Source of the DNA: a virus
Lineage: Duplodnaviria; Heunggongvirae; Uroviricota; Caudoviricetes
Length of the DNA stretch: 35,267 nt
Reading direction: 5' to 3' (one strand)
IMG/VR virus record: IMGVR_UViG_2737471818_000009
Part shown: positions 1 through 26,151 of the stretch, piece by piece
How the letters are laid out: the number at the start of each line of letters is the position of its first letter
How positions within the stretch are numbered: the first letter of the stretch is position 1
Translations under genes and position numbers: made by a program
The notes under the pieces: generated by a model
What the model saw: only the letters and a program-made list of their open reading frames with translations
What the model was told of the DNA's origin: nothing
Databases searched by the model: none

Positions 1-278
1 GGTCATAACTCCTCATGTGTGTGGGGTGCTCAATGGCTCTCGTTATCTGGTTAAGTGTTTTGCAGCGCGGACATTTTATTTCAATGTAGTGAAATGAGGC
101 GCGGGCAAGTAGTTTGTTGCAATTTTTGCATCGTACATTTTGCGTCATTTGCGGCACCTCTTGTGTGGTTACTGCTGCCGATATGATAACAAATCGATCG
201 TTTTTATCGATCGGATTTATTGCATCGATCTGTCATGCCTATTGCTTACGAATAGTGTCACCCTCATTTGTGAGGGCA

Positions 279-322
279 ACAAAAAGAAAACCCGCAGTTT
301 TTACGCTGCGGGTTTGTTGTTC
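279..322. terminator. Rho-independent terminator candidate, bidirectional
   Basis: Stem cccgcag / ctgcggg (291..297 and 306..312) with 8-nt loop, A-rich run 279..291 on plus (T-run on minus) and tttgttgtt after it on plus; lies downstream of the minus-strand hok-like ORF. Confidence 0.4.
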
Positions 323-400
323 ATGTCTGTGAGATAGGGTGCCACTTCAGCCAACCTTAGCAACCGATTGACGGGGGATTACTCCCCCGTCGCGGTTTCC

Positions 401-541
401 TTACTGTTTACACTGTAAGAACGCCGCAAACTCCGCTCCCCAGAATCTCATCCGTATCTCGCACAGCGAACCGTGCAGCATCCAGATGATGAGGATTGCC
501 GTCACGCAGAACGTGATGGCTATAAGCGATTTTTGCGACAT
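401..541 (-). CDS. hok: Hok/Gef-family type I toxin (46 aa, below the ORF-track size cutoff)
   Basis: Hand translation: MSQKSLIAITFCVTAILIIWMLHGSLCEIRMRFWGAEFAAFLQCKQ; single TM segment followed by the Hok signature SLCEIR...E(F/V)AAF; ATG at 539..541 preceded by GGAG 8 nt upstream; perfect 9-bp hairpin at 370..391 just past the stop. Confidence 0.7.
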   Translation of the reverse strand: MSQKSLIAITFCVTAILIIWMLHGSLCEIRMRFWGAEFAAFLQCKQ

Positions 542-805
542 AGCACTTGCTCCTTTTTTTGCAAAGGCGCTAAGCTCTTGCCCGCTTATTGATTACGTTG
601 TGAAACGCCCAGAGTTGAACATAAGGTTTAGTTGGGCCTTTTTACATCTGGCCTTCGTGTTTGCTGTCCAGCCATCAGTCGAAAGGTGTCCGCGTGAATT
701 CTAGCCTGCTTTTTTTTCTTGCTTCAATACGTTGACTAATTTCAACACTCTGTTGTGCATATCCTGAACGCAGACATTATTCAATCACGCATTTGATACA
801 TGCTT

Positions 806-830
806 CCGCCGGCGTTCGCGCCGGTTTTTT
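806..830 (+). terminator. Rho-independent terminator candidate
   Basis: Stem ccggcg (809..814) / cgccgg (819..824), loop ttcg, followed by tttttt (825..830). Confidence 0.45.
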
Positions 831-1065
831 CGTCCTGTTGCTGCGTAGATCGTCATGTGCGATCGAGGTGCGGTATTGATCCTTTTTTCAGTTTAATTTT
901 GACTCTTAATTTTACGCAGGCTGCGCCGCGTCTGGCTTCGTTGTTTGATGGTTGTTTAATGTGATCCTTTCGTGATCGTTTTTCGTCTCGCGTAAAGTAT
1001 GAAAACTCTTTTAATATCATGCTGTTTTATTGCTCCTGCCATTTGCGTGATCGTAAAAACCTCTC

Positions 1066-1170
1066 TGAAAACTGAAAAAAATTTCAAAGCGTGAAATTTC
1101 AGATCTTCGCTTTTCCCTCAGTTGCTGCGCGGGCTGGCTGTCATTTTTGCACGGCAGAAAACTGAAAAAC
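1066..1170. repeat. Two direct copies of GAAAACTGAAAAA about 90 bp apart
   Basis: gaaaactgaaaaa at 1068..1080 and 1158..1170 in the noncoding left flank. Confidence 0.35.
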
Positions 1171-1211
1171 TGTTTCGACACAAAACCCGCGGGTTGGAGG
1201 GGGGAGCGCGG

Positions 1212-1254
1212 TTTACGTCACCTCATGCTTTACGTCACACCGTTTACGTGGTGT
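1212..1254. repeat. Three direct TTTACGT(C/G) repeats with an embedded inverted repeat
   Basis: tttacgtcac at 1212..1221 and 1229..1238, tttacgtggt at 1243..1252; cacacc / ggtgtg inverted repeat flanks the third copy; cccgcggg palindrome just upstream. Confidence 0.4.
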
Positions 1255-1307
1255 GCGTATACAGCGCCGGAATGGCACGCAGAACGCATTAATCAGGTGG
1301 CAGATAT

Positions 1308-1333
1308 GAAAACGCACGACCGGAGCCGTGCGT
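1308..1333 (-). terminator. Rho-independent terminator candidate at the end of the late tail operon
   Basis: Stem acgcacg (1312..1318) / cgtgcgt (1327..1333) with 8-nt loop, followed on the minus strand by TTTTC (plus-strand gaaaa 1308..1312); 43 nt downstream of the last late gene stop. Confidence 0.45.
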
Positions 1334-1375
1334 TGTGTGATGGGGCGTTTATGGGGGGGGCTTTATGCCCGGTGA

Positions 1376-3073
1376 TCAGGCGATAAGGTCACCGTATTTT
1401 TCGCGCAGGCTCGTAGCCTGTTGGGCGTCTGCGGCAAGTTCGCTGCTGTTTGTTGGTGCGCCAGTATTGCTATGGGTATGGTTTGCAGTGTGTGTGGCCA
1501 GCAACTGAACCAGATCCAGAATATCAATCAACAACGTCAGCAGATTAAGTCCGGATTTTTCCCGTGAGCCACCGCGCCCAATAAATACAGTCGGGGCGGT
1601 AAATTCCAGGCCGCCGTCCGCCCGGCATGTTCTGCGGCCTCCCACGTTTTCGGTGAGGTTATGCTCGATGGTGGATGTCGCCCCTTTGAGTTTAGTCAGC
1701 AAATCCTGCGCTACCATCTGGATATGCTCACCGGCTGCGATCGCATAATGGCCAGTAGTAATGTGTTCTGTCTGACCTGTCATCAGCTTGCTGGTTCCCA
1801 GAACGCTGGTTATGTCGTTTGCCTGTACTGTTGTTGTTCTGGTTGTTGTTGTGCGTTCTTCCTGATCGCTGTTAATGGTTCGCCTGGCTGAATGCTCCCT
1901 GATTTGCTGGTCGGTTTCTCTGTGCCAGCTTCCGTCAGTCGTGACACGCTGAAACACCTCTGCGCGCTGTTGTTGCAATTGTTCGCCGGGCTTTACATCA
2001 GGCAAGTTATGACCAGCGGGTAAAATTTGCCTGATAACAGGCTTATCTGGGCGTCCTTCAATGTTGGATATTTCCACGATGGTGCCTGCTGGCGGGTAGG
2101 CAAAACATCCCGCCTCACTGCCAGCCATGGGGACGGGGAGTGGTACTGCCGGGTAAACAGGCGTATCGTTTTTATCGTTGCCGTTCTCATCAAGCAACTG
2201 CACATCGACGGCGTAGCGTGGGCGGAAACTGTCGGCTACATCGCCCAGGGTGACGGATTCCGTTGGGGCAATGACGCGCGCCAGCCGGGTATGAAGAGTA
2301 CCGCTGGCCAGTTCCGGGAACTGTGTTTCCATTTGTCTGCGTAATGGTGATTTGGAAACAGGGCTACCCGTGGCGGTAAGGCGCTCCCATGTCAGGGTCA
2401 TTTTCTCGTTGTTGAGGGCTACACGGGTAATGCGCCCGGCGGGAAGATTCACGCCCGGTCGCACAGTTTCCATAAACATGATGTCGATGCTGTTTCCGCC
2501 GCTTTGCCCGAGTGTGTACTGTTGCGGAATATCCGGCATGGTAATACTGGCAAACCGTGAATCAGCTGCGCTCCCCACAAATACAGAACCGTCCGGCATA
2601 GGGTGCCAGACGTAATCGCTGATACTGAATGCTCGCCCCAGTTGGCTGAGCAGTTGTGCTCCGCTGCCGCTGTGGGTGATGTAGGGAGTTGGTATACCGG
2701 CATAATCCGCATCCGGAGTGATAAAAACGATACCGCTTTGTCGCCCCAGATTATCGAGTACCCCCCGCAGCGTCGGGTGTTGCATGGAGCAGGGGAAATC
2801 AAAATCCAGCACAGCAGCTGCTTCACGGATAAAAAGGCGACGTGAGCCATTTTCAGCAGGTTGATCGCGCTCAATATAGCCGGAGAAATAGCGCCATGCT
2901 TCACCGTCACGACCGAGATCAATTTGTACCATTGCGCCGGCAAGGCTGTGTTCGGGTGACAGATTGTTAACAGAAATGAAGCCACGACCGGCAGCATTCA
3001 GGGTAAGAACAAGGCTTATATCGGCAATTTCCACCCGTTCGCCATTAATCATGCAGCGTTGTATCAATTTCAT
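1376..3073 (-). CDS. Putative baseplate hub/spike-like tail protein (gpD/gp27-like N-terminal region, tentative), 565 aa
   Basis: Last gene of the late operon, ATGA-coupled to the upstream ORF; N-terminal segment (VQIDLGRDGEAWRYFSGYIER) resembles late-control-D/VgrG hub proteins; PAGTIVEISNIEGRPDKPVI resembles a gpV/gp5 OB-fold motif; assignment by eye only. Confidence 0.4.
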   Translation of the reverse strand: MKLIQRCMINGERVEIADISLVLTLNAAGRGFISVNNLSPEHSLAGAMVQIDLGRDGEAWRYFSGYIERDQPAENGSRRLFIREAAAVLDFDFPCSMQHPTLRGVLDNLGRQSGIVFITPDADYAGIPTPYITHSGSGAQLLSQLGRAFSISDYVWHPMPDGSVFVGSAADSRFASITMPDIPQQYTLGQSGGNSIDIMFMETVRPGVNLPAGRITRVALNNEKMTLTWERLTATGSPVSKSPLRRQMETQFPELASGTLHTRLARVIAPTESVTLGDVADSFRPRYAVDVQLLDENGNDKNDTPVYPAVPLPVPMAGSEAGCFAYPPAGTIVEISNIEGRPDKPVIRQILPAGHNLPDVKPGEQLQQQRAEVFQRVTTDGSWHRETDQQIREHSARRTINSDQEERTTTTRTTTVQANDITSVLGTSKLMTGQTEHITTGHYAIAAGEHIQMVAQDLLTKLKGATSTIEHNLTENVGGRRTCRADGGLEFTAPTVFIGRGGSREKSGLNLLTLLIDILDLVQLLATHTANHTHSNTGAPTNSSELAADAQQATSLREKYGDLIA

Positions 3074-3645
3074 GTTTTCCCTTCCTCTTTCACGCTCCCG
3101 ATGCCAACAGCATCCAGACCAGACCCAACGGCATCATTGATTTTTTTCCAGAACGAACTTTGCGTATTCATGCCTTTGTCTGGTGCCTGTTCGCTGCCAT
3201 TCTGGGTCTGCTGTCTGGCGATGTTTTTTTGCGAGCCGCTGCGTGCGGATGCTTTCTCTGGCACGCTTAATTTTTCCCTGAGAGTAAAGGTGATCTGCCA
3301 GTGCATTTTTCCCTGTTGTTCCGTGGCATCAATGCCACCAGAAAATACCCCCTGTCGCATATTGATTGCCTTCGCGGTAGCGTTAGCAATGCGATATGTT
3401 TTTTTGGCTCCGTTGCTTTCTGTTGCCTCCGCAAGCTGAAAAATCCGGGTCAGAATAGCTTCATCGTTAAAATCAATAACCCCCGACACGCGCAGCTCTT
3501 TAGCCTTGTTTCCCTGCTGGGCGCTCGTGGTGCTGGTTGACTGTCCGGACATATCTTTGTCCGGTAGTTGCATGGTGGCGCTGACGGTGATGTTGCGCAG
3601 CAGAATGGCTTCCCCGTCAAGCGCAAGGACAATCATCTGGGTCAT
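3070..3645 (-). CDS. Hypothetical protein, 191 aa, probably tail/baseplate associated
   Basis: ATG at 3643..3645 (alternative 3634..3636); overlaps both neighbours; Ser/Thr/Gln-rich linker; no recognisable motif. Confidence 0.35.
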   Translation of the reverse strand: MTQMIVLALDGEAILLRNITVSATMQLPDKDMSGQSTSTTSAQQGNKAKELRVSGVIDFNDEAILTRIFQLAEATESNGAKKTYRIANATAKAINMRQGVFSGGIDATEQQGKMHWQITFTLREKLSVPEKASARSGSQKNIARQQTQNGSEQAPDKGMNTQSSFWKKINDAVGSGLDAVGIGSVKEEGKT

Positions 3646-4330
3646 GTAGTGCTTCCCTTAGTGATGAGAGATTATCGCCGACGAACAGCATCGCAGCTGT
3701 AAAAACCCACTCTGGGTGTGGGATATTTTTTTGTATCAGCACTGCAGCCTGGCTAAGGGCTCCCTTGTAGCAAAAGCGCCACACCGGGCAAAATTTTTGC
3801 CTGAGTGCGGCCTGCTGATCAGCGATTTCCTGCAGTGCTTTATCTCTCGCATGCATGAACTGATGCAGCGATGATGACAATGTTTCCAGTGATGTGACGG
3901 CAGGAGTGGCTGCCTGTGCAATGGTTGCTGCCAGCGACATGCTGCGAGTGGTCTGTGTCGACAGCATTATCGGTTCCGGAAGTGATGTTACCGGTCTGGC
4001 GGGGATTTGCATTCTGCTGATGGCCAGTGAAAGCTGGCTGGAGATCATGCGGGACATTCGTCCCACCTCTGGCAACGGAAATGCGCCTGAAAATTGCCTG
4101 GCGAGTGATAAAAACTCGCCAGCAGAAGGGGTGCAAAATAACAGCGCTACAATGTCCTTTTCTGTGCTTTCTTTCAGATAGGGTAAAAGTGCAGATACAG
4201 CATTTTTGGGGCTGAGATAACGCCCCGATGGTGTGATGTTTCCGGTATTCTCTGACCACGGATGAAGGCAAACCACAGAACATTTAATGTTCATGGCTGA
4301 CGGGCGCAGAATTGCCTTTTCCCATTTCAT
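3617..4330 (-). CDS. Hypothetical protein, 237 aa, function unknown
   Basis: ATG 4328..4330 overlaps the stop of the upstream tail fibre assembly gene (ATGA coupling); no recognisable motif. Confidence 0.35.
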   Translation of the reverse strand: MKWEKAILRPSAMNIKCSVVCLHPWSENTGNITPSGRYLSPKNAVSALLPYLKESTEKDIVALLFCTPSAGEFLSLARQFSGAFPLPEVGRMSRMISSQLSLAISRMQIPARPVTSLPEPIMLSTQTTRSMSLAATIAQAATPAVTSLETLSSSLHQFMHARDKALQEIADQQAALRQKFCPVWRFCYKGALSQAAVLIQKNIPHPEWVFTAAMLFVGDNLSSLREALHDPDDCPCA

Positions 4331-4902
4331 TGTGGCTCTCCAGCCTGAAAAGCGCGGATGTCGGCAAGATTATTCAGGTTTTCCAGCGCGTCTTTCATCT
4401 CTCGCTGACGTCGAAAAATTTCATCGTTGCGGTTAACCTGCGCCTGCGCCATAGCTGCAGCCAGCTCCTCCAGTTCTGTTATCGACAGTTTCACCTGCTG
4501 ATTATCAGCATCACTCCATGTCATAACGTCCCGCTGCGCTGTGTCAGATCCTGCAGCCATTACCAACGGGTAAAGGCGGGCCAGCGAGTCGGGGCCGGCA
4601 TTCCAGGTGTGACCGTTCCATTCAAACGTGAACGGCTGCGCTTCCTGTTCTGTGCGCCAGGCTTCGATTTCCCGCTTTTTGGCATCTTTTGCCACTGCGA
4701 TAAGTTCCGGCGTGACAGTAAACGGAGCGATTTCGCCCCATCTGCCACTCTGCAGTTCCCGCCAGATTTGCCGGCCCGTTTCTGCTGTATCATTTGCCGA
4801 AGCGGTGTATGGAACCGGCGTTTCCATACCTGAAAACACGACCATGCAGTCAACATCTCCGCTTTCAAGATACCGTTGTTCGCTGATTTTTTTTATTTCC
4901 AT
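4327..4902 (-). CDS. Tail fibre assembly chaperone (second copy)
   Basis: 191 aa, immediately downstream of a tail fibre gene; start overlaps the fibre stop; typical Tfa size and position. Confidence 0.65.
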   Translation of the reverse strand: MEIKKISEQRYLESGDVDCMVVFSGMETPVPYTASANDTAETGRQIWRELQSGRWGEIAPFTVTPELIAVAKDAKKREIEAWRTEQEAQPFTFEWNGHTWNAGPDSLARLYPLVMAAGSDTAQRDVMTWSDADNQQVKLSITELEELAAAMAQAQVNRNDEIFRRQREMKDALENLNNLADIRAFQAGEPQ

Positions 4903-6947
4903 TACATCGTCCTTATAAAGGCTGCAATAATGAACTCACCTTCTCCGGTGTAATCCGGTGTCCCGGAAAGTGCGCGGTAAACGCCTGGCAGTGTGTGTTT
5001 CTCTGCACCAGAAAGTCCAATTTTCGGCGACGATAACGCCCCTTCCGCAACACTGAATACTACAGGTGTCAGGGCGGAGCCCGGATAATATTGCCCTCGT
5101 CTGATACTGACCGTTTTATTACTGCCTCTGCCCTGAAGAGCTGCCAGCGTTATGCTTCCTGTATATGGGTCACCATAATCATCATTTGTGGTCCTGCTCA
5201 GAATTTGCGTAATATCATTCTGGTCAATATTTATTTTCCCCCACTCACTCAGTGAAGGACCATGTATGGCATCGTATGTTGCCCGGTACAGTTCACCGTT
5301 CATCCCGTAAAAAACAGCCATCTTCAGCATTACCGGGACAGTAAGGTTATTCCGCATCTCATCGGCAAAAAATAAATCAATCACACCTGTAAACTGTACT
5401 TCCGGTATAATTTCGCAGTCTGCGCTGACCGTATACCGCCCCGGTGTGGCATTTGAGATCCAGTCAAGAAGCACTTCCTTCGACGAAAAGCTGAGAACGT
5501 CACCTTTTGTGAAGATATGCCCGAATCCCAGACTGCCTGCAACTGCAGCCCGTCCCGGCGTTCTGTCATAAATGTCTGACTGGAGCTCATAATTTCCGCC
5601 CGATGCTGAATTTCCACTATTTCCACTGATACCCAGAACGTCACACATCTCTTCGGCTGTGGATTGTGACAGCAGCTGTTTCCCTTTTTCAGAAACAGGA
5701 ACCAGAGAACACTGCCCGTCACCGGTAAAACCGGGAAAACCGCTCCCGTCAGAAGGAAGATTACCTAACGCAGTCAGAACGGGACTTAACGGCTGTTTTC
5801 CGGCCAGCGCGTTCATCATTGTTGTCGCAAAGCTCGGGTCATTACCCAGCGCCTCCGCCAGTTCGTTCAGCGTGTCCAGGGCTTCCGGTGATGAATCAAC
5901 CAGTGCAGCAAGTAGTTTGCGGACAAACGCCGCATTAGCTATTTCATTACCTGCTGCATCATCCGGTGGTGTTGGCGTGGACGGCGTTCCAGTCAGCGCC
6001 GGGCTGTTCAGTGGGGCGCGGGTTTCAATCAGTGCCCGGAGTGTAGCCTCGTTGACTTTAAGGTTTTCCCAGCCAACCAGATAACCATCTCCGGTAGTCC
6101 AGTATCGGTTGTAATAAATATGGCCGTTAATACCGCAGAAAATAATAACTTTAGCTACATATGCCGGATTAGGATTGGTCTGATGTTCCGGCCAGATAAT
6201 TTCAATAGTGCCGCTGAACAGGACTTTAGGAATGATTTTATCTGCACCATAAACGATATAACGACCAGGTGTTGCCGTTTTTACCCACAGTAGAAAATCA
6301 GCCTCCGTTTTAAACTCGATCCTGTCACCACTGGAAAATATTTTCCCGAACCCGAACATGCCCGGAATTGCCAGACGGCCCGCGGTACGATCGTGGGTAC
6401 CGTCCTGCGACTCCATTGTGGCTGCGCTTTTTAGTCCAAGATTATCGCGGGATTCCTGCTGTGCTTCCGCGCCTGCTGCCGCAATTTCTGACAGATGGTT
6501 TGGAGCTTTCAACATTGTTTTCAGTTCCGGATAAATATCCACTTGCCAGCTTTGTGGGGGTACGGTGATTTGCGCAGACCGTGCTATGCCCTGATAAGTA
6601 ATCGTGAAGTTTCTGATCAGTGACTCGCCGGCATGTTTCTGTCTGACAGGTGTTTTTATTACGCCGCATAATGTTCCGCTGGCCTGATGAACCAGGCAAA
6701 TCCAGTCATAGCTGAATGCACAGTCATCAGGGACAACCGCGCTACACACAATATTGTTCGGGCTTAACTGGCCGTAGGTCAGTTCATTCACAGCATATGT
6801 GATTTTTTCTTCCGGAACGGTATTATCTTCGCGCGTTGGTTCCCGCTCCATCAGGGCAAAAATAATAGCGTCAGGGCGTGCAGGCAAATTACTGGCTGTG
6901 CATTCCGCAACCCACTTTTCAAATGCTTTCGTCAACAGTGCGCTCAT
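4902..6947 (-). CDS. Tail fibre protein (second fibre, 681 aa)
   Basis: N-terminus (MSALLTKAFEKWVAECTASNLPARPD) parallels that of the first fibre; Gly/Ser-rich repeats; followed by a Tfa gene. Confidence 0.7.
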   Translation of the reverse strand: MSALLTKAFEKWVAECTASNLPARPDAIIFALMEREPTREDNTVPEEKITYAVNELTYGQLSPNNIVCSAVVPDDCAFSYDWICLVHQASGTLCGVIKTPVRQKHAGESLIRNFTITYQGIARSAQITVPPQSWQVDIYPELKTMLKAPNHLSEIAAAGAEAQQESRDNLGLKSAATMESQDGTHDRTAGRLAIPGMFGFGKIFSSGDRIEFKTEADFLLWVKTATPGRYIVYGADKIIPKVLFSGTIEIIWPEHQTNPNPAYVAKVIIFCGINGHIYYNRYWTTGDGYLVGWENLKVNEATLRALIETRAPLNSPALTGTPSTPTPPDDAAGNEIANAAFVRKLLAALVDSSPEALDTLNELAEALGNDPSFATTMMNALAGKQPLSPVLTALGNLPSDGSGFPGFTGDGQCSLVPVSEKGKQLLSQSTAEEMCDVLGISGNSGNSASGGNYELQSDIYDRTPGRAAVAGSLGFGHIFTKGDVLSFSSKEVLLDWISNATPGRYTVSADCEIIPEVQFTGVIDLFFADEMRNNLTVPVMLKMAVFYGMNGELYRATYDAIHGPSLSEWGKINIDQNDITQILSRTTNDDYGDPYTGSITLAALQGRGSNKTVSIRRGQYYPGSALTPVVFSVAEGALSSPKIGLSGAEKHTLPGVYRALSGTPDYTGEGEFIIAAFIRTM

Positions 6948-6953
6948 TACTTC

Positions 6954-7505
6954 TTAATTCTCGCTAATGTTCTGCGGTAATTCTGGCCATACAATCGCGG
7001 CATACGATGCTCTATCTGTAACCTGGCTGAATGTCATCTCCCGTAACGTTTTTGTATAAATACGGCAGGCTTTCAGTTTTTCCCTGTCTTCGTCGCTGAT
7101 TAATCCCAGCAGCAGATCTTTTTCCCATTCGCTGGTCATGATGCTGACCTGTTTTAACAGTGCATCACGCTCATCTTCCGCTTTAAGTTTGTAGTCGAAA
7201 ACAAATTCATCATTGCGGTAAAACCAGTAACCCGGTGCGGTAATGCGGCGGTTAGCGGTAATATCAGGAACTTCAATAACACTGGCGTTACGGGGTTCAA
7301 TGCCTGTCACATCCTTACCGACCCACACCACGCGTCCGTCTCCGGTGTAAACCATTTTTATGGTGTCACTGGTAAAGTTCTTCTGTTCTTCATACCAGTT
7401 TTTGCCGTCTTCCGAAAAAAGCCAGGTGACATCATATTGTTTTGTCAGCTGATATTGTTCCGCGGTTTTCGGATTACCCGCAGTAATACTTTTTAAATGC
7501 AACAT
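6954..7505 (-). CDS. Tail fibre assembly chaperone (first copy)
   Basis: 183 aa directly downstream of the first tail fibre gene. Confidence 0.65.
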   Translation of the reverse strand: MLHLKSITAGNPKTAEQYQLTKQYDVTWLFSEDGKNWYEEQKNFTSDTIKMVYTGDGRVVWVGKDVTGIEPRNASVIEVPDITANRRITAPGYWFYRNDEFVFDYKLKAEDERDALLKQVSIMTSEWEKDLLLGLISDEDREKLKACRIYTKTLREMTFSQVTDRASYAAIVWPELPQNISEN

Positions 7506-7507
7506 TG

Positions 7508-9208
7508 TTAAACACTCGCCACGTTATACCAGGTGCCATTAATCAGTTTCTGAAGCGGTCGGTAATACACGCCGCCGATGTTATCCGCCGAATTACTTCC
7601 GGTTTCCTGCACATTAATGCCGGATAACCCGTGGCCTGAAGGTGAGCGAAATGTCCAGGATATCTGGTTACCTCCCGGGTTGTAATACATTTCGGAACCG
7701 TACCTTACATCCTGCACTCCCTCTGTTCGCTGCTTATACCTGGCATCAAAGTTTCCGTAATCTGACGGCGTTACCCGACCGGAAGTGTTCATGGCCCTGT
7801 TACTTTGTAACGTCCCGTTCTGAAAACGGAATATATGCTGGCCGTTGGCATAAATATCCAGCAGACCGTCGCCATTCTGCTTTATACCCGTATCGTTATC
7901 CCCGAAAGCAATTGAGTTTCCGCCCAGCGCGTTCTGAACGCCGATACCCAGCGCACCATTCACCTGAGAACCGCCACCAACAGACACTTTATGCGACATG
8001 GATATTTCACCCGTCCGCAAATTAATAGTGAACGGACGCAGGGGGCCAATATCGCCGTTTTCGCCCTGATTTTCCCGGGTGGGAATAAGATGCAGGCACT
8101 CTTCAGAACGACGAAAAATCAGGCCAAAAGCTTCGTTGAAAATCCTCAGTGCATTAACACCACGGATTTTCAGCTCCCCGGTCATGGTGTCGCCGTCGCG
8201 CTCAACAGCGTCTTTTGCTTTATCCATTGCGGCTTTTACTGCCTTTGATGTGGCGGCGCGGTCTTCTGCGTCGCTGTCGGTGGAGTTGCTGTACTGCGCA
8301 AAGCCTTTCTCCTTCAGTGTTGCGTCCGGATGATGGCGGGATTTTTCGTGCTCTGCCAGTGCATTGCTTTGTTCTTCGTCGGGTGTCTCCGGGCGCAGGT
8401 CCTGTGGGCCGTCTCCTGTCATTTTTGCAAGTGGCGCGACAAAGTGTCGGAAGCCGTTACCGTCTGTATAAGACGCATGTTCCTGGCGGGCGCAAAACGT
8501 AAAAACGGTATTCCATTCGCCGGTAACAAATCCCTGCCAGCTTGCATCAATCCAGAGGGTATCCCCGACCGCAGCCGGCAGGCTGTAAGGTTCGCGCAGA
8601 CTGACGCGCAGACCTCCCACATAACCCACGCCGGCGGCAACAGTAGCGGTACCGTCCTGATAGCTGACCTGAAAACCATCCCCCAGAAAAGCGGCTTCAC
8701 CGTAGTGATCAAACGCCAGCAGCCGGCGGGCCTCATCCATTCCTGCAAGGCGTGCAGTGAAATCAATCTGCCAGACATCAGCGCTGACATCGATATGCAT
8801 TGCTGCGGCTGCGCCGTCAAACTCCATGGAAAATGTGCGGATCAGGTTGTTTCCCTGCACGCCGTTCGCTGTTTTAATTTTTTGCTGACGAGGTGTGTGT
8901 GCAATCATGCAGAGCACGCCGCTTTCTTCGTTCAGCAGGCCGATCCAGTTGTATTCGAAGTCGCCGACTGTCGTGTCCAGAATGATGGAAAACGCGGTCG
9001 CGTTCGGGGACAGGAGGCCGTACTGGGTGACCGGCGCACGATACTGAATCATGGATTCATCAGGGAGTATCTCATCGCGGGGGATCTCTGCGGATTCATC
9101 CTGTCCCGGAATATATGCAAAAACAAATGTATCCGGGCGCGCAGGTTTTCCACTGATGATTTGATTTGCGCACCAGTGTTCGTACTGTTCAGTAATAATC
9201 GTGCTCAT
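7508..9208 (-). CDS. Tail fibre protein (first fibre, 566 aa)
   Basis: N-terminus MSTIITEQYEHWCANQIISGKPARPD related to the second fibre; internal SNSTDSDAEDRAATSKAVKAAMD block typical of myovirus tail fibres; ATGA-coupled to the upstream baseplate gene. Confidence 0.75.
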   Translation of the reverse strand: MSTIITEQYEHWCANQIISGKPARPDTFVFAYIPGQDESAEIPRDEILPDESMIQYRAPVTQYGLLSPNATAFSIILDTTVGDFEYNWIGLLNEESGVLCMIAHTPRQQKIKTANGVQGNNLIRTFSMEFDGAAAAMHIDVSADVWQIDFTARLAGMDEARRLLAFDHYGEAAFLGDGFQVSYQDGTATVAAGVGYVGGLRVSLREPYSLPAAVGDTLWIDASWQGFVTGEWNTVFTFCARQEHASYTDGNGFRHFVAPLAKMTGDGPQDLRPETPDEEQSNALAEHEKSRHHPDATLKEKGFAQYSNSTDSDAEDRAATSKAVKAAMDKAKDAVERDGDTMTGELKIRGVNALRIFNEAFGLIFRRSEECLHLIPTRENQGENGDIGPLRPFTINLRTGEISMSHKVSVGGGSQVNGALGIGVQNALGGNSIAFGDNDTGIKQNGDGLLDIYANGQHIFRFQNGTLQSNRAMNTSGRVTPSDYGNFDARYKQRTEGVQDVRYGSEMYYNPGGNQISWTFRSPSGHGLSGINVQETGSNSADNIGGVYYRPLQKLINGTWYNVASV

Positions 9209-13995: not shown

Positions 13996-14337
13996 TCAGC
14001 GCACGCCGTCGTGCTCAAGGCTGAAATGATTGCCATCCGGGCGGTTTTTAAAACGACCGCCCCATGCGCCACCAAGGGATTCCCAGTACTCGCCCAGCTC
14101 GCGGTAGGCCTCTGTGCGGGTCTGATATTCACCGTTAATAAACAGATTAAAATCCACGGCCAGCCGCTGGCAGTGCAGGCTGTTGGCAATGCCGGATCCC
14201 TTTTGTGCGTTGAGTTTTGCCTGTTCTGGCGTGCGGTACGCCTCACCGAACGTCAGGCCATAACCGCGCTGATGGGCAAACTGGATGAGTTTTCCGATCA
14301 TGACGGTAAATTGTTGTTGCTTATCGGAGAGTTTCAT
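13996..14337 (-). CDS. Endolysin, peptidase M15-type (L-alanyl-D-glutamate peptidase-like)
   Basis: 113 aa; zinc-ligand-like motifs SLHCQRLAVD and GNHFSLEH; sits after the holin. Confidence 0.75.
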   Translation of the reverse strand: MKLSDKQQQFTVMIGKLIQFAHQRGYGLTFGEAYRTPEQAKLNAQKGSGIANSLHCQRLAVDFNLFINGEYQTRTEAYRELGEYWESLGGAWGGRFKNRPDGNHFSLEHDGVR

Positions 14338-14441
14338 TTTTGCTCCTTATGAGGTTGCTGAGGTTTGCGCAGCCAGTACCACAGTGCCCGGATAATTTTC
14401 CAGGCAATGGCGGCAGCTTTTTGTTCCCTGCGGGACAGCAT
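14334..14441 (-). CDS. Small basic amphipathic ORF (35 aa) between holin and endolysin
   Basis: Hand translation MLSRREQKAAAIAWKIIRALWYWLRKPQQPHKEQK; GAGGAG RBS 8 nt upstream of ATG 14439..14441; stop TGA overlaps the endolysin ATG. Confidence 0.35.
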   Translation of the reverse strand: MLSRREQKAAAIAWKIIRALWYWLRKPQQPHKEQK

Positions 14442-14446
14442 TGCTG

Positions 14447-14743
14447 TTACTCCTCTTTGTTCTCTTTCTCGCCCAGCTTCCGGCGCATATGACGCAGGAA
14501 GATTTCAACAATCTGGTAACCGGCAACGCCCATTGCGGTGCCTGCGCCGGCAATGGCCAGTGGGTCAAGGTTCGGGTAGCGAACCAGCAGGGCAGCGGCA
14601 GAAACACCCAGCGCGCTCCCCAGCAGGGTTCGGCCCACAAACAACCGCAACGTAATCGGCTCTGCGCCAGCCAGCACCCGACTTGCGGCAGCGATTCCGC
14701 CCAGAATGCCCAGAGTGATAATGGTGCGCTCATGCTCCTGCAT
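14447..14743 (-). CDS. Holin
   Basis: 98 aa with three hydrophobic segments and a charged C-terminus (RHMRRKLGEKENKEE); directly upstream of the endolysin. Confidence 0.65.
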   Translation of the reverse strand: MQEHERTIITLGILGGIAAASRVLAGAEPITLRLFVGRTLLGSALGVSAAALLVRYPNLDPLAIAGAGTAMGVAGYQIVEIFLRHMRRKLGEKENKEE

Positions 14744-24199: not shown

Positions 24200-24571
24200 T
24201 TATTCAATGGCAGACAACTGATAATTTGTGTCTTCCTGCAGGCTGGTTAAAGAAATATTATCCAGTGCAGCCAGAATAACGTGCTGTGTATATAATCCGG
24301 AACATTTCATTGCCCGAACAACATCACCAACACTGTAATTTTCTTTTGTTGGGATATATCCACCACCCGGGCCGCGTGTGGCTTTTACCAGGCTACTTTC
24401 CCGTAAATATCTGAATATTTGCTCCAGATATGACAGTGAAACGGTTTCTTTGCTTAATTGCCGGAGCGAGATTGGCTTTCCGGTGTACTGTTTCACAAAT
24501 TTAATCATTACCATAACTGCAACTGATGCACGCTGGCTTCCGGAATTATCTTTCATCATGATTACTTCCAT
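24200..24571 (-). CDS. Rrf2-family winged-helix transcriptional regulator (no Cys cluster ligands)
   Basis: ISLSYLEQIFRYLRESSLVKATRGPGGGYIPTK matches the Rrf2/IscR recognition helix-wing signature; only one Cys downstream; ATG 24569..24571 overlaps the upstream stop by 1 nt. Confidence 0.65.
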   Translation of the reverse strand: MEVIMMKDNSGSQRASVAVMVMIKFVKQYTGKPISLRQLSKETVSLSYLEQIFRYLRESSLVKATRGPGGGYIPTKENYSVGDVVRAMKCSGLYTQHVILAALDNISLTSLQEDTNYQLSAIE

Positions 24572-24876
24572 TAATGGCATAAATTGATGGAGCGGGTCAG
24601 TGAATAAAGAGGCAATACATTCCATCCCTTAGAGCGCCAGCTGTCTGCAACATCTTTACTTCTTGTTATCGCCGGTATTCCAATAGGATTATTTGCGTGC
24701 ATCCATGCCACTGGCTCTGCTTCCAGTGATGCAAGTGCGATTTCCAGTGCGATTAACATATTGTGATCGTCTTCATCAAGACCGAACGGGATGTCTTCGC
24801 GCCACGATTTAAACTCTGTGATTTTACGTTGTAACCATTCTTTGGTAATGGTGGACATAGTTACTCCTGTTTTCAC
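24571..24876 (-). CDS. Hypothetical small protein (95-101 aa) coupled between parR and the Rrf2 gene
   Basis: Position 24874..24876 is GTG overlapping the parR stop; first ATG at 24856..24858; no recognisable motif. Confidence 0.4.
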   Translation of the reverse strand: MKTGVTMSTITKEWLQRKITEFKSWREDIPFGLDEDDHNMLIALEIALASLEAEPVAWMHANNPIGIPAITRSKDVADSWRSKGWNVLPLYSLTRSINLCH

Positions 24877-25187
24877 TTCGGGAAAAACGCCTGAATATTC
24901 TTTTTCACCTGCTGCATATGGGGGGCGCTGTCTGCTGCTGGTTGCGCCGGTTTTTCAGGCTGTACTGGTAGCGGTGGCATCCGTATTTCGTCTTCTGACC
25001 ATTCTGCCAGCGAATACGCCAACGCGGGGGTGCGTTTTATAAGAGCCAGTCCGGCCAGAAAAGCCGCGCGTTGTGCGCGGCTGCGTTCGGAGGCTGGCAG
25101 GCTGTCGAGGTAACTGCACGCCTCCCGTTCGCTCTTGACGACGGTGGGCTTCAGATAGAAACTTATCCGTCTGGTTGGTGTCGTCAT
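24873..25187 (-). CDS. parR: ParR-like centromere-binding protein (type II partition adaptor)
   Basis: 104 aa from ATG 25185..25187 (AGGAG RBS); RRISFYLKP...YLDSLPASERSRAQRAAFLAGLAL parallels plasmid R1 ParR (RRTIAFKLNP...TLDSIPQGERSRLNRAALTAGLAL, recalled); 5 nt after the parM stop. Confidence 0.7.
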   Translation of the reverse strand: MTTPTRRISFYLKPTVVKSEREACSYLDSLPASERSRAQRAAFLAGLALIKRTPALAYSLAEWSEDEIRMPPLPVQPEKPAQPAADSAPHMQQVKKNIQAFFPK

Positions 25188-25191
25188 TGAT

Positions 25192-26151
25192 TTACTCCTG
25201 GTCCATTGCGTACAGCCCATTAACCAGAGCAAACTGTGGCACCCCGTCCGCGATGAAAGTCGCATTAACTCCGCAGGCTTCGCAGATAGCGGGTGCCACA
25301 ATCTCCGCTCCTCCACCTACAACCATCACCCGCCCGTAACCCGAAAAACCCGCCAGCGCGCGGATCACGCGTTGTTTCAGTGTTTCTTCCTTTTCACGAA
25401 TAACTGCCATCAGGCTGGCGTAATGCGCGTCATTGTGGATGTGCTGGCGCAGCCAGGCTTCATCGTGGCGATGTTCGATAATGGTATTGGCGATGTGGTG
25501 ACTGGTGCGCATACCGTTGGTGGCCATCACCGACAGCACGGCATCGGCCATCAGAGAAACGCCTACGTGTGGATCGCAAAACACCTGGCTGATACCTGCC
25601 AGCTGCCCCTGAACCTTTGCCACATCCAGCGTGGTTCCGCCCAAATCCACAATCAGCAGGGATTCAAACGGACTCATGTCGGCCAGTGCTTTAAAGCCAG
25701 CCGGAATGGATTCAGGCATAACCCGCACGTTACGGATAGTGAATGCTTCGCCGTTCTGGTACTCCACCGGGCGCATAACGTTCGCTTTTTTGCGGTTGAT
25801 GTTGGCCATGTCCGGCTGTGCGTTTGTGTCGAAATACTCGCTCAGTGGCAGGGTGACAACCACATCCACCTCCTGTGGCGTGATGCCTGATTTGACCAGC
25901 GCGTGATGAATGGCAATGACATTCACATCGCTGTACTGGTATTGCGTGTCGGTCGTCTGGACAAAGCGATCGCTGACCGGATCAAAACCATAGCGCACAC
26001 CATCAAGCATGTAGTTCGCGGGCTGCGTGCCACCGAACGGCGCAGACCATTCCGACTTGAAGCTGTTCGGGCTGATGGCGTTGCGGCGTTCGCCGTTCTC
26101 AGTCCATGCCAGCTTGATGTTGGTGGAGCCGTCGTCGATACAAATTTTCAT
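25192..26151 (-). CDS. parM: ParM/StbA-like actin-fold partition ATPase
   Basis: 319 aa with IDDGSTNIKL, ISPNSFK, YSDVNVIAIHHAL, RKKANVMRPVE, MPESIPAG, DLGGTTLD and GGGAE motifs, collinear with plasmid R1 ParM. Confidence 0.85.
   Translation of the reverse strand: MKICIDDGSTNIKLAWTENGERRNAISPNSFKSEWSAPFGGTQPANYMLDGVRYGFDPVSDRFVQTTDTQYQYSDVNVIAIHHALVKSGITPQEVDVVVTLPLSEYFDTNAQPDMANINRKKANVMRPVEYQNGEAFTIRNVRVMPESIPAGFKALADMSPFESLLIVDLGGTTLDVAKVQGQLAGISQVFCDPHVGVSLMADAVLSVMATNGMRTSHHIANTIIEHRHDEAWLRQHIHNDAHYASLMAVIREKEETLKQRVIRALAGFSGYGRVMVVGGGAEIVAPAICEACGVNATFIADGVPQFALVNGLYAMDQE

Follow-up and report, generated by a model that had tools for sequence, protein, structure and literature searches.

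The final three genes of the late operon in IMG/VR virus record IMGVR_UViG_2737471818_000009 (Caudoviricetes; its whole stretch of 35,267 nucleotides, nt, was analysed and is called the window below) most probably constitute the conserved central hub module that closes an HP1-type contractile tail operon, and hence ordinary tail hardware and not cargo. They encode proteins of 237, 191 and 565 amino acids (aa), which are the orthologues of Haemophilus phage HP1 orf33-orf34-orf35 and of Vibrio phage K139 orf37-39, and are here referred to as ORF33, ORF34 and ORF35 (ORF, open reading frame). Taking the two assignments jointly, we hold with high confidence that ORF34, judging by its modelled fold, would be a tube initiator (or 'ripcord') and the functional counterpart of P2 gpU, and that ORF35, judging by its sequence matches, would be a baseplate hub fused to the central spike in a VgrG-like architecture.

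The three minus-strand frames, as delineated in an earlier note on this DNA, were borne out (Table 1) as the last ORFs of the minus-strand late operon, with overlaps of 4, 29 and 4 nt: the ATG of ORF33 overlaps the TGA of the upstream DUF4376 gene (ATGA), ORF34 starts 29 nt ahead of the ORF33 stop, and the ATG of ORF35 overlaps the TGA of ORF34 (ATGA). Purine-rich, Shine-Dalgarno-like stretches lie upstream of each start, and the G+C content (0.51-0.55 over the region) is alike in the flanks. Two details of that note had to be revised. What it took for a second tail-fibre chaperone (Tfa) belongs to DUF4376 (PHROG 'tail fiber protein'), unlike the Caudo_TAP chaperone of the first fibre cassette. 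As to the late terminator that it placed after the 565-aa gene, the consensus scan found no strong intrinsic minus-strand terminator directly after ORF35; by eye, no more than a weak 5-bp hairpin with GTTTTC behind it can be seen at ~1305-1331.

The close DNA relatives of the element are E. coli prophages. By megablast, positions 1-5000 of the window matched 1,577 of 5,426 complete E. coli genomes, with at least 80% of the stretch covered in only 38; in strain MB07081 the element adjoins raiA. At the protein level (tblastn, phage genomes), the 191-aa and 565-aa proteins were found in an identical set of 75 phage records (hosts: Vibrio, Escherichia, Pseudoalteromonas, Pseudomonas, Salmonella, Aeromonas, Pasteurella, Haemophilus, Yersinia and Cronobacter), and the 237-aa protein in 26 records with the direct query and in 50 with K139 orf37 as query. 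The annotated gene order after the fibre chaperone is the same in HP1 (orf33-34-35), K139 (orf37-38-39) and phiO18P (gp44-46), and the placement of hub genes after the fibres, not after the tape measure, which the earlier note had suggested, is the standard layout of these HP1-like Peduoviridae. Scanning 80 IMG/VR contigs (retrieved by the 191-aa family) with profiles of all three families recovered all three genes in one order in every contig (80/80), and the same order was seen in six named phages; ORF33 and ORF34 were syntenic in 85 of the 85 loci that carry the complete trio, from Haemophilus to Pseudomonas phages.

Over these 85 loci the identity to the window proteins drops in step for the three genes, the 237-aa protein being more diverged than both its neighbours in 83 of them (means of 46%, 60% and 60% for ORF33, ORF34 and ORF35, respectively). 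The ratios of nonsynonymous to synonymous divergence (dN/dS) against nine close relatives were low throughout (0.16-0.28 for ORF33, 0.03-0.12 for ORF34 and 0.05-0.11 for ORF35), and thus all three are real expressed genes under purifying selection. Synonymous divergence (dS) differed two- to three-fold among the trio within single prophage pairs (0.25, 0.07 and 0.07 for locus L012; also L022, L025 and others), which points to recombination breakpoints inside the module. Homologues of the module are abundant in databases, with 956 sequences in a single 99%-identical cluster. One database protein (P0304, 323 aa) joins the first ~80 residues of an orf33 homologue straight to the C-terminal half of an orf35 homologue, and looks like a decaying-prophage deletion that took out orf34 and the hub domain.

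The 191-aa protein had been described as devoid of recognisable motifs, which was mistaken, as it falls within Pfam PF25759 ('HP1 ORF34 baseplate complex protein'; 182.1 bits vs a cut-off of 27, E-value, E, 1e-53), with residues 2-175 aligned to profile positions 2-177 of 180. An AlphaFold2 model built from 41 homologues has the tail-tube fold (beta-sandwich, flanking helix, long hairpin), with a predicted local distance difference test score (pLDDT) of 90-93 for residues 50-120 and of 68-89 for the strands at residues 4-24, the loop 25-49 and the C-terminal 60 residues being poorly defined. Its best structural matches are tube initiators and 'ripcords' (the class of P2 gpU, pyocin PA0626, Pam3 gp17 and the N-domain of Mu gp43), including pyocin R2 PA0626, which is homologous to P2 gpU (3e-13), just as the pyocin hub is homologous to gpD. 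The ORF34 gene directly adjoins the hub-spike gene, and P2 likewise has U before D. Thus, it is from the tube fold, the match to the gpU-related PA0626 and the U-D-like gene order that we read ORF34 as a putative tube initiator. Membership of the gpU family was not recovered at the sequence level (no PF06995 Phage_P2_GpU match at E up to 0.1), nor did hhalign match the ORF34 family to the single P2 gpU sequence; the gpU homology of the orf34 family has been called uncertain ('gpU?'), and its homologue in Pseudoalteromonas phage ACA1 was not detected by virion mass spectrometry (PMC10612066).

ORF35 matched phrog_2258 ('baseplate protein') over its full length (4e-233), and its C-terminal ~320 residues (243-559) matched phrog_4011, also a 'baseplate protein'. 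Its two-module build is laid open by six HP1-like phages (C5a, yong1, 1.202.O, SMHB1, ACA1 and phi3) in which hub and spike are two adjacent genes, the first falling on profile positions 1-226 and the second from ~230 to the end (break at positions 225-232); this natural fission defines a ~228-residue hub module and a spike module. The hub module reaches no Pfam family: neither the window protein nor HP1 orf35 nor the stand-alone hub genes gave a PF05954 (Phage_GPD) match (E up to 0.1 or 1), and hhalign of the trio families against the single P2 proteins gpD, gpV, gpU and gpX gave no match. A gpD family alignment was needed before a signal emerged: against nine gpD-family sequences, a 14-sequence hub alignment scored E 0.0037 (probability 9%) and the full-length ORF35-family alignment E 0.0017 (probability 16%), the profiles being shallow. 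The alignment is collinear, N-terminus to N-terminus, over 141-142 columns (residues 3-150 vs gpD 15-175), and the apparent similarity of hub and gpD is weak but located where expected. The sole match of a PDB search with the hub-only profile was to a repeat motif and was judged spurious.

Within the spike module, PF04717 (Phage_base_V) aligned to residues 310-347 with 15.8 bits vs a cut-off of 23.8 (E 0.019; E 0.0033 for HP1 orf35) and TIGR01646 (VgrG) to residues 311-363 with an E of 3.3e-4, far under the family cut-off. P. aeruginosa VgrG1 also resembles this oligonucleotide/oligosaccharide-binding (OB) region (residues 310-364 in all), its chains falling on family-profile positions 312-345, and homologues 48-49% identical to ORF35 bear the source names 'Gp5/VgrG OB-fold' or 'baseplate assembly protein V'. 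Profile positions 416-502 matched the C-terminal beta-helix chains of T4 gp5 (E 0.003-0.01), and H532 and H534 at the apex are invariant in two alignments (25 and 13 homologues). The C-terminal end of P2 gpV reads ...LHTHKHPGDSGG..., with HTHKH near the C-terminus, and an iron ion at the gpV spike tip is reportedly bound by an HxH motif (a finding said to be that of Browning et al. in 2012). The hub-like and OB-spike-like segments that the earlier note had discerned are supported. HP1 orf35 has also been listed as a fusion of gpD and gpV homologues (Table S1 of PMC10612066), and the link between hub and gpD agrees with the one published there from HHpred at 10% identity.

A conserved 65-aa gene (phrog_5576, of unassigned function) follows the spike gene in Vibrio phages without orf33 (L090, 6903-7100; L091, 6925-7122). 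In the Vibrio phages yong1 and 1.202.O, where we considered it as a detached HxH apex, this idea was rejected, as the gene has no HxH motif; it gave no LysM match either.

The earlier note had likened the place of ORF33 and ORF34 to the Z/fun cargo hotspot of P2; that the two are cargo (moron) genes unrelated to tail structure we now regard as extremely improbable. The position after a fibre-chaperone-like gene does recall Z/fun in P2, and ORF33 has no annotated function; however, both genes are constant and in the same order wherever the trio occurs (85/85 loci), and the variability among related prophages for which that note had proposed to look is confined to the loss of ORF33 in a distant sub-lineage. 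Moreover, they are translationally coupled (their starts overlap the ends of the preceding genes), no terminator-like site and only one 9-of-12 promoter-like match lie between the upstream gene and ORF33, their G+C content (0.51-0.52) matches that of the flanks, and ORF34 has the fold of a tail tube. PADLOC returned two sub-significant Cas6 matches for ORF33, which were rejected, and none for ORF34. In P2 itself, Z/fun lie on the opposite strand after a terminator, unlike ORF33 and ORF34. Synteny and the ORF34 fold contradict the cargo reading. The same note had considered its idea incompatible with all three proteins matching baseplate or tail families and occurring in virions: two of the three do match such families, and the homologues of orf33, hub and spike were found in ACA1 virions, although that of orf34 was not. 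The variable accessory genes of these elements sit downstream of the 565-aa spike gene, not upstream, and in relatives comprise an extra TM2-domain gene (enterotoxigenic E. coli relatives) or a HicAB pair (Pseudomonas phage phi3); in the window, positions 1-1375 look like this variable accessory site.

For ORF33, the earlier statement that it has no recognisable motif holds beyond matches to two PHROGs, both function-unknown. Searches of Pfam, NCBIfam and the PDB brought up no relative, whether with the single sequence, the profile or 79 members one by one; PDB matches of the single sequence and of the 79-member profile were at chance level and rejected, and a link to the chaperone FlgN (four weak Pfam matches among the 79 members, far below threshold) was ascribed to helical composition. 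Run in full with HMMER over 1.84 billion representatives, the family profile recovered only 128 proteins, in two size classes (~235 and ~295 aa). Secondary-structure prediction gave mostly helix; the structure model cannot be relied on (pLDDT 44), and the fold search with it came back empty. Conservation is highest at positions that are mostly W, L, P, G, A or F, with no invariant charged or nucleophilic residue, which argues against an enzyme. In one protein (P0306, 527 aa) an orf33-like domain occupies residues 309-523, after an N-terminal part with an Ala/Thr/Gly-rich end; this part had no Pfam or PHROG match and was dropped as a functional clue.

C5a (whole genome searched), yong1, 1.202.O and SMHB1 lack the ORF33 gene, with nothing in its place, the orf34 homologue being directly preceded by the fibre gene (by the fibre chaperone in SMHB1). 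Its absence from four HP1-like phages implies that it is an accessory and not a universal part of the module, and a tie to the presence of a fibre chaperone was rejected, since SMHB1 has the chaperone without ORF33. In purified ACA1 virions the homologue gp46 was recorded with 2 spectra and 6% coverage, and its signal per unit mass (0.09) stands beside those of gpW (0.08), gpJ (0.05) and gpV (0.06) in the same data set (PMC10612066). The homologue of Yersinia phage 324 is labelled 'structural protein'; the source of this label was not traceable, and a literature search on the phage (vB_YenM_324) found nothing.

We tentatively favour ORF33 as a low-copy structural baseplate protein. A rather unlikely alternative is that ORF33 has no structural part and acts in assembly, for example as a chaperone by which the hub-spike trimerises or is mounted, or by which fibres are joined to the baseplate, traces of it being carried over into virion preparations. 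It would agree with the predicted helical nature and low model confidence of ORF33, with the FlgN-like matches, with a laxer selection and a faster divergence than the adjacent structural genes show, with the four phages that lack it and with the sparse virion detection; yet the ACA1 signal per unit mass lies within the range of the accepted baseplate proteins gpW, gpJ and gpV, helical composition by itself explains the FlgN matches, and SMHB1 speaks against a part in fibre chaperoning. Very improbable is a low-copy passenger on the hub-spike, delivered to the host envelope or cell and effector- or anti-defence-like. The gene does lie near a VgrG-like spike gene, is accessory and faster-evolving than its neighbours, and its homologue is detected in virions at a low level, but ORF33 has no conserved catalytic-type residues and resembles no enzyme, toxin or defence-related family, and its divergence follows that of ORF34 and ORF35, with no pattern of cassette exchange. 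Improbable, too, is that ORF33 would be a fast-evolving low-copy virion protein acting either as a passenger or effector delivered at or after penetration, or as a new-fold 'glue' replacing the LysM protein gpX of P2-type baseplates; if true, contractile tails would gain a new class of component, confined to one HP1-like branch.

Among known systems, HP1 (Hpunavirus), K139 and the Aeromonas phage phiO18P come closest: there, too, the late operon closes at its 3' end, after the fibre and chaperone genes, with these three families in unchanged order and with overlapping gene ends, and hub and spike are likewise fused in one protein of 533-565 aa. Identities of the window proteins to these phages amount to 18-23% (ORF33), 29-40% (ORF34) and 32-38% (ORF35). 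The window element differs in having two fibre cassettes upstream of the trio, and the K139 and phiO18P homologues of ORF33 carry ~55 additional N-terminal residues. For ACA1 gp46-gp49, HHpred annotation gave the orf33 homologue, 'gpU?', a gpD-like mounting domain and a gpV-like spike (PMC10612066); unlike in the window, its hub and spike are two genes and its ORF33 has only 209 aa, falling on profile positions 68-242.

P2 differs in several respects. The window proteins are not direct sequence members of Pfam Phage_P2_GpU or Phage_GPD, the hub has ~228 aa vs 387 aa in P2 gpD, hub and spike form one polypeptide whereas gpD and gpV are separate, and P2 is without an ORF33 counterpart. In turn, no gpX-like LysM protein was found among the late genes scanned. 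The window module comes after the wedge and fibre genes, whereas the P2 hub genes come directly after the tape measure (gpU-gpD at the end of the F operon); in pyocin R2 the ripcord, hub and spike are PA0626, PA0628 and PA0616. The VgrG of type VI secretion systems and T4 gp27-gp5 would share with the window protein the succession of a hub, then OB fold and beta-helix, in a trimeric needle; direct matches, to the OB region in VgrG and to the beta-helix in gp5, are weak (all below family thresholds), the window hub is far smaller, there is no lysozyme domain, and the spike apex is built in, no separate PAAR protein having been identified. The enterocoliticin tailocin was rejected as a proteomics source for an HP1-like tail, as it is Mu-like, and our literature search found no cryo-electron microscopy structure of an HP1-like baseplate.

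We propose that the hub module would nucleate the baseplate and carry the membrane-piercing tip. ORF35 would most likely be a trimer, with the N-terminal hub domain beneath the tube and the C-terminal OB fold, beta-helix and HxH apex forming the spike, in other words P2 gpD and gpV in one VgrG-like chain. ORF34 would most likely form a ring between hub and tube, fitting the threefold symmetry of the one to the sixfold symmetry of the other and initiating polymerisation of the tube, as do P2 gpU, the pyocin 'ripcord' and the tube initiator of Pam3. ORF33 is a lineage-restricted accessory of the module, which would most likely join the hub complex to the wedge or help to mount it.

The late gene set as a whole is the HP1-type tail module of Peduoviridae (Table 1). 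As in HP1, the tail operon encloses the lysis genes (13996-14743), which follow the tube gene and precede that of the tail assembly chaperone. The two fibre cassettes follow one another at 4327-9208, with collar fibres of 566 aa (with Caudo_TAP) and 681 aa (with DUF4376); in E. coli MB07081 (L001, 17421-18932) the second fibre gene is a remnant, split by a fragment annotated as shikimate transporter. A stretch of ~440 nt in the DUF4376 gene (window 4391-4830) is 80-82% identical at the nucleotide level to the Stx2e phage phiP27 and phage Rac-SA53, both otherwise unrelated here, which points to an exchange of fibre modules across phage types. Among the early genes of the element are those of an actin-like segregation protein of the ParM/StbA type (25192-26151), a homologue of plasmid stability protein B (24873-25316) and a regulator of the Rrf2 type (24200-24625); partition genes of this plasmid style in a P2/HP1-like element raise the possibility of a phage-plasmid lifestyle or ancestry.

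Table 1. Features of the hub module and its surroundings, with positions in the window.
Feature	Position	Strand	Basis or remark
Com-family regulator and DNA methyltransferase off the left edge	1-1375		Comparison with E. coli MB07081
Hok/Gef toxin	~401-541	minus	Comparison with E. coli MB07081
ORF35-like gene (565 aa)	1376-3073	minus	
Spike apex (residues ~525-565; H532-T-H534 codons 1472-1480)	1379-1501	minus	Invariant HxH
Beta-helix region of spike (residues ~390-505)	1559-1906	minus	T4 gp5 beta-helix chain matches
OB-fold region of spike (residues ~265-365)	1979-2281	minus	PF04717, TIGR01646 and VgrG1 matches
Hub domain of ORF35 (residues ~1-228)	2390-3073	minus	Stand-alone gene in six phages; hhalign to gpD family
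ORF34-like gene (191 aa)	3070-3645	minus	
ORF33-like gene (237 aa, 26 kDa, isoelectric point 8.7)	3617-4330	minus	
Upstream DUF4376 gene (191 aa), final gene of second fibre cassette	4327-4902	minus	Pfam DUF4376 2e-17 and phrog_1141
Start of late genes: small terminase (gpM family), gpL, gpR and gpS families	from 18863 leftwards	minus	
Next late genes: DUF2586 (sheath position), HP1 Orf24 (tube position)			
Holin family 2	14447-14743		Late operon
M15 peptidase	13996-14337		Late operon
Next late genes: tail assembly chaperone, DUF6890, tape measure, DUF2590, Baseplate_J, Tail_P2_I			
Fibre cassettes: collar-fibre protein and Caudo_TAP chaperone, then second collar-fibre protein and DUF4376 protein, then the trio			

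Most of this module had already been explained: the gpD-gpV fusion and 'gpU?' were published in 2023 (PMC10612066), and the 191-aa family has a curated Pfam entry. What we add is fold-level support for reading ORF34 as the tube initiator, the site of fission by which the hub domain is delimited, and orf33 as an accessory, faster-evolving member that some HP1-like phages lack. The importance is mainly one of annotation. Public records label homologues of the 191-aa protein as 'nucleoid DNA-binding protein', 'DNA-binding protein', 'adenine glycosylase', 'tail fiber protein' or 'tail-collar fiber protein', and those of the 565-aa protein as 'head completion protein' or 'hypothetical', labels that are probably propagated mis-annotations. 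The profiles also find genes that had gone unannotated, namely an orf33 homologue and a stand-alone hub gene in phi3 (L005, ~5100-6001 and 6540-7235) and a stand-alone hub gene in C5a (L004, 6492-7178). Labelling the tube initiator and the hub-spike fusion as such would complete the parts list of the HP1-type baseplate, and the residual interest lies in the role of the orf33 family, a conserved yet dispensable partner of the hub module and a target for the study of a minimal baseplate.

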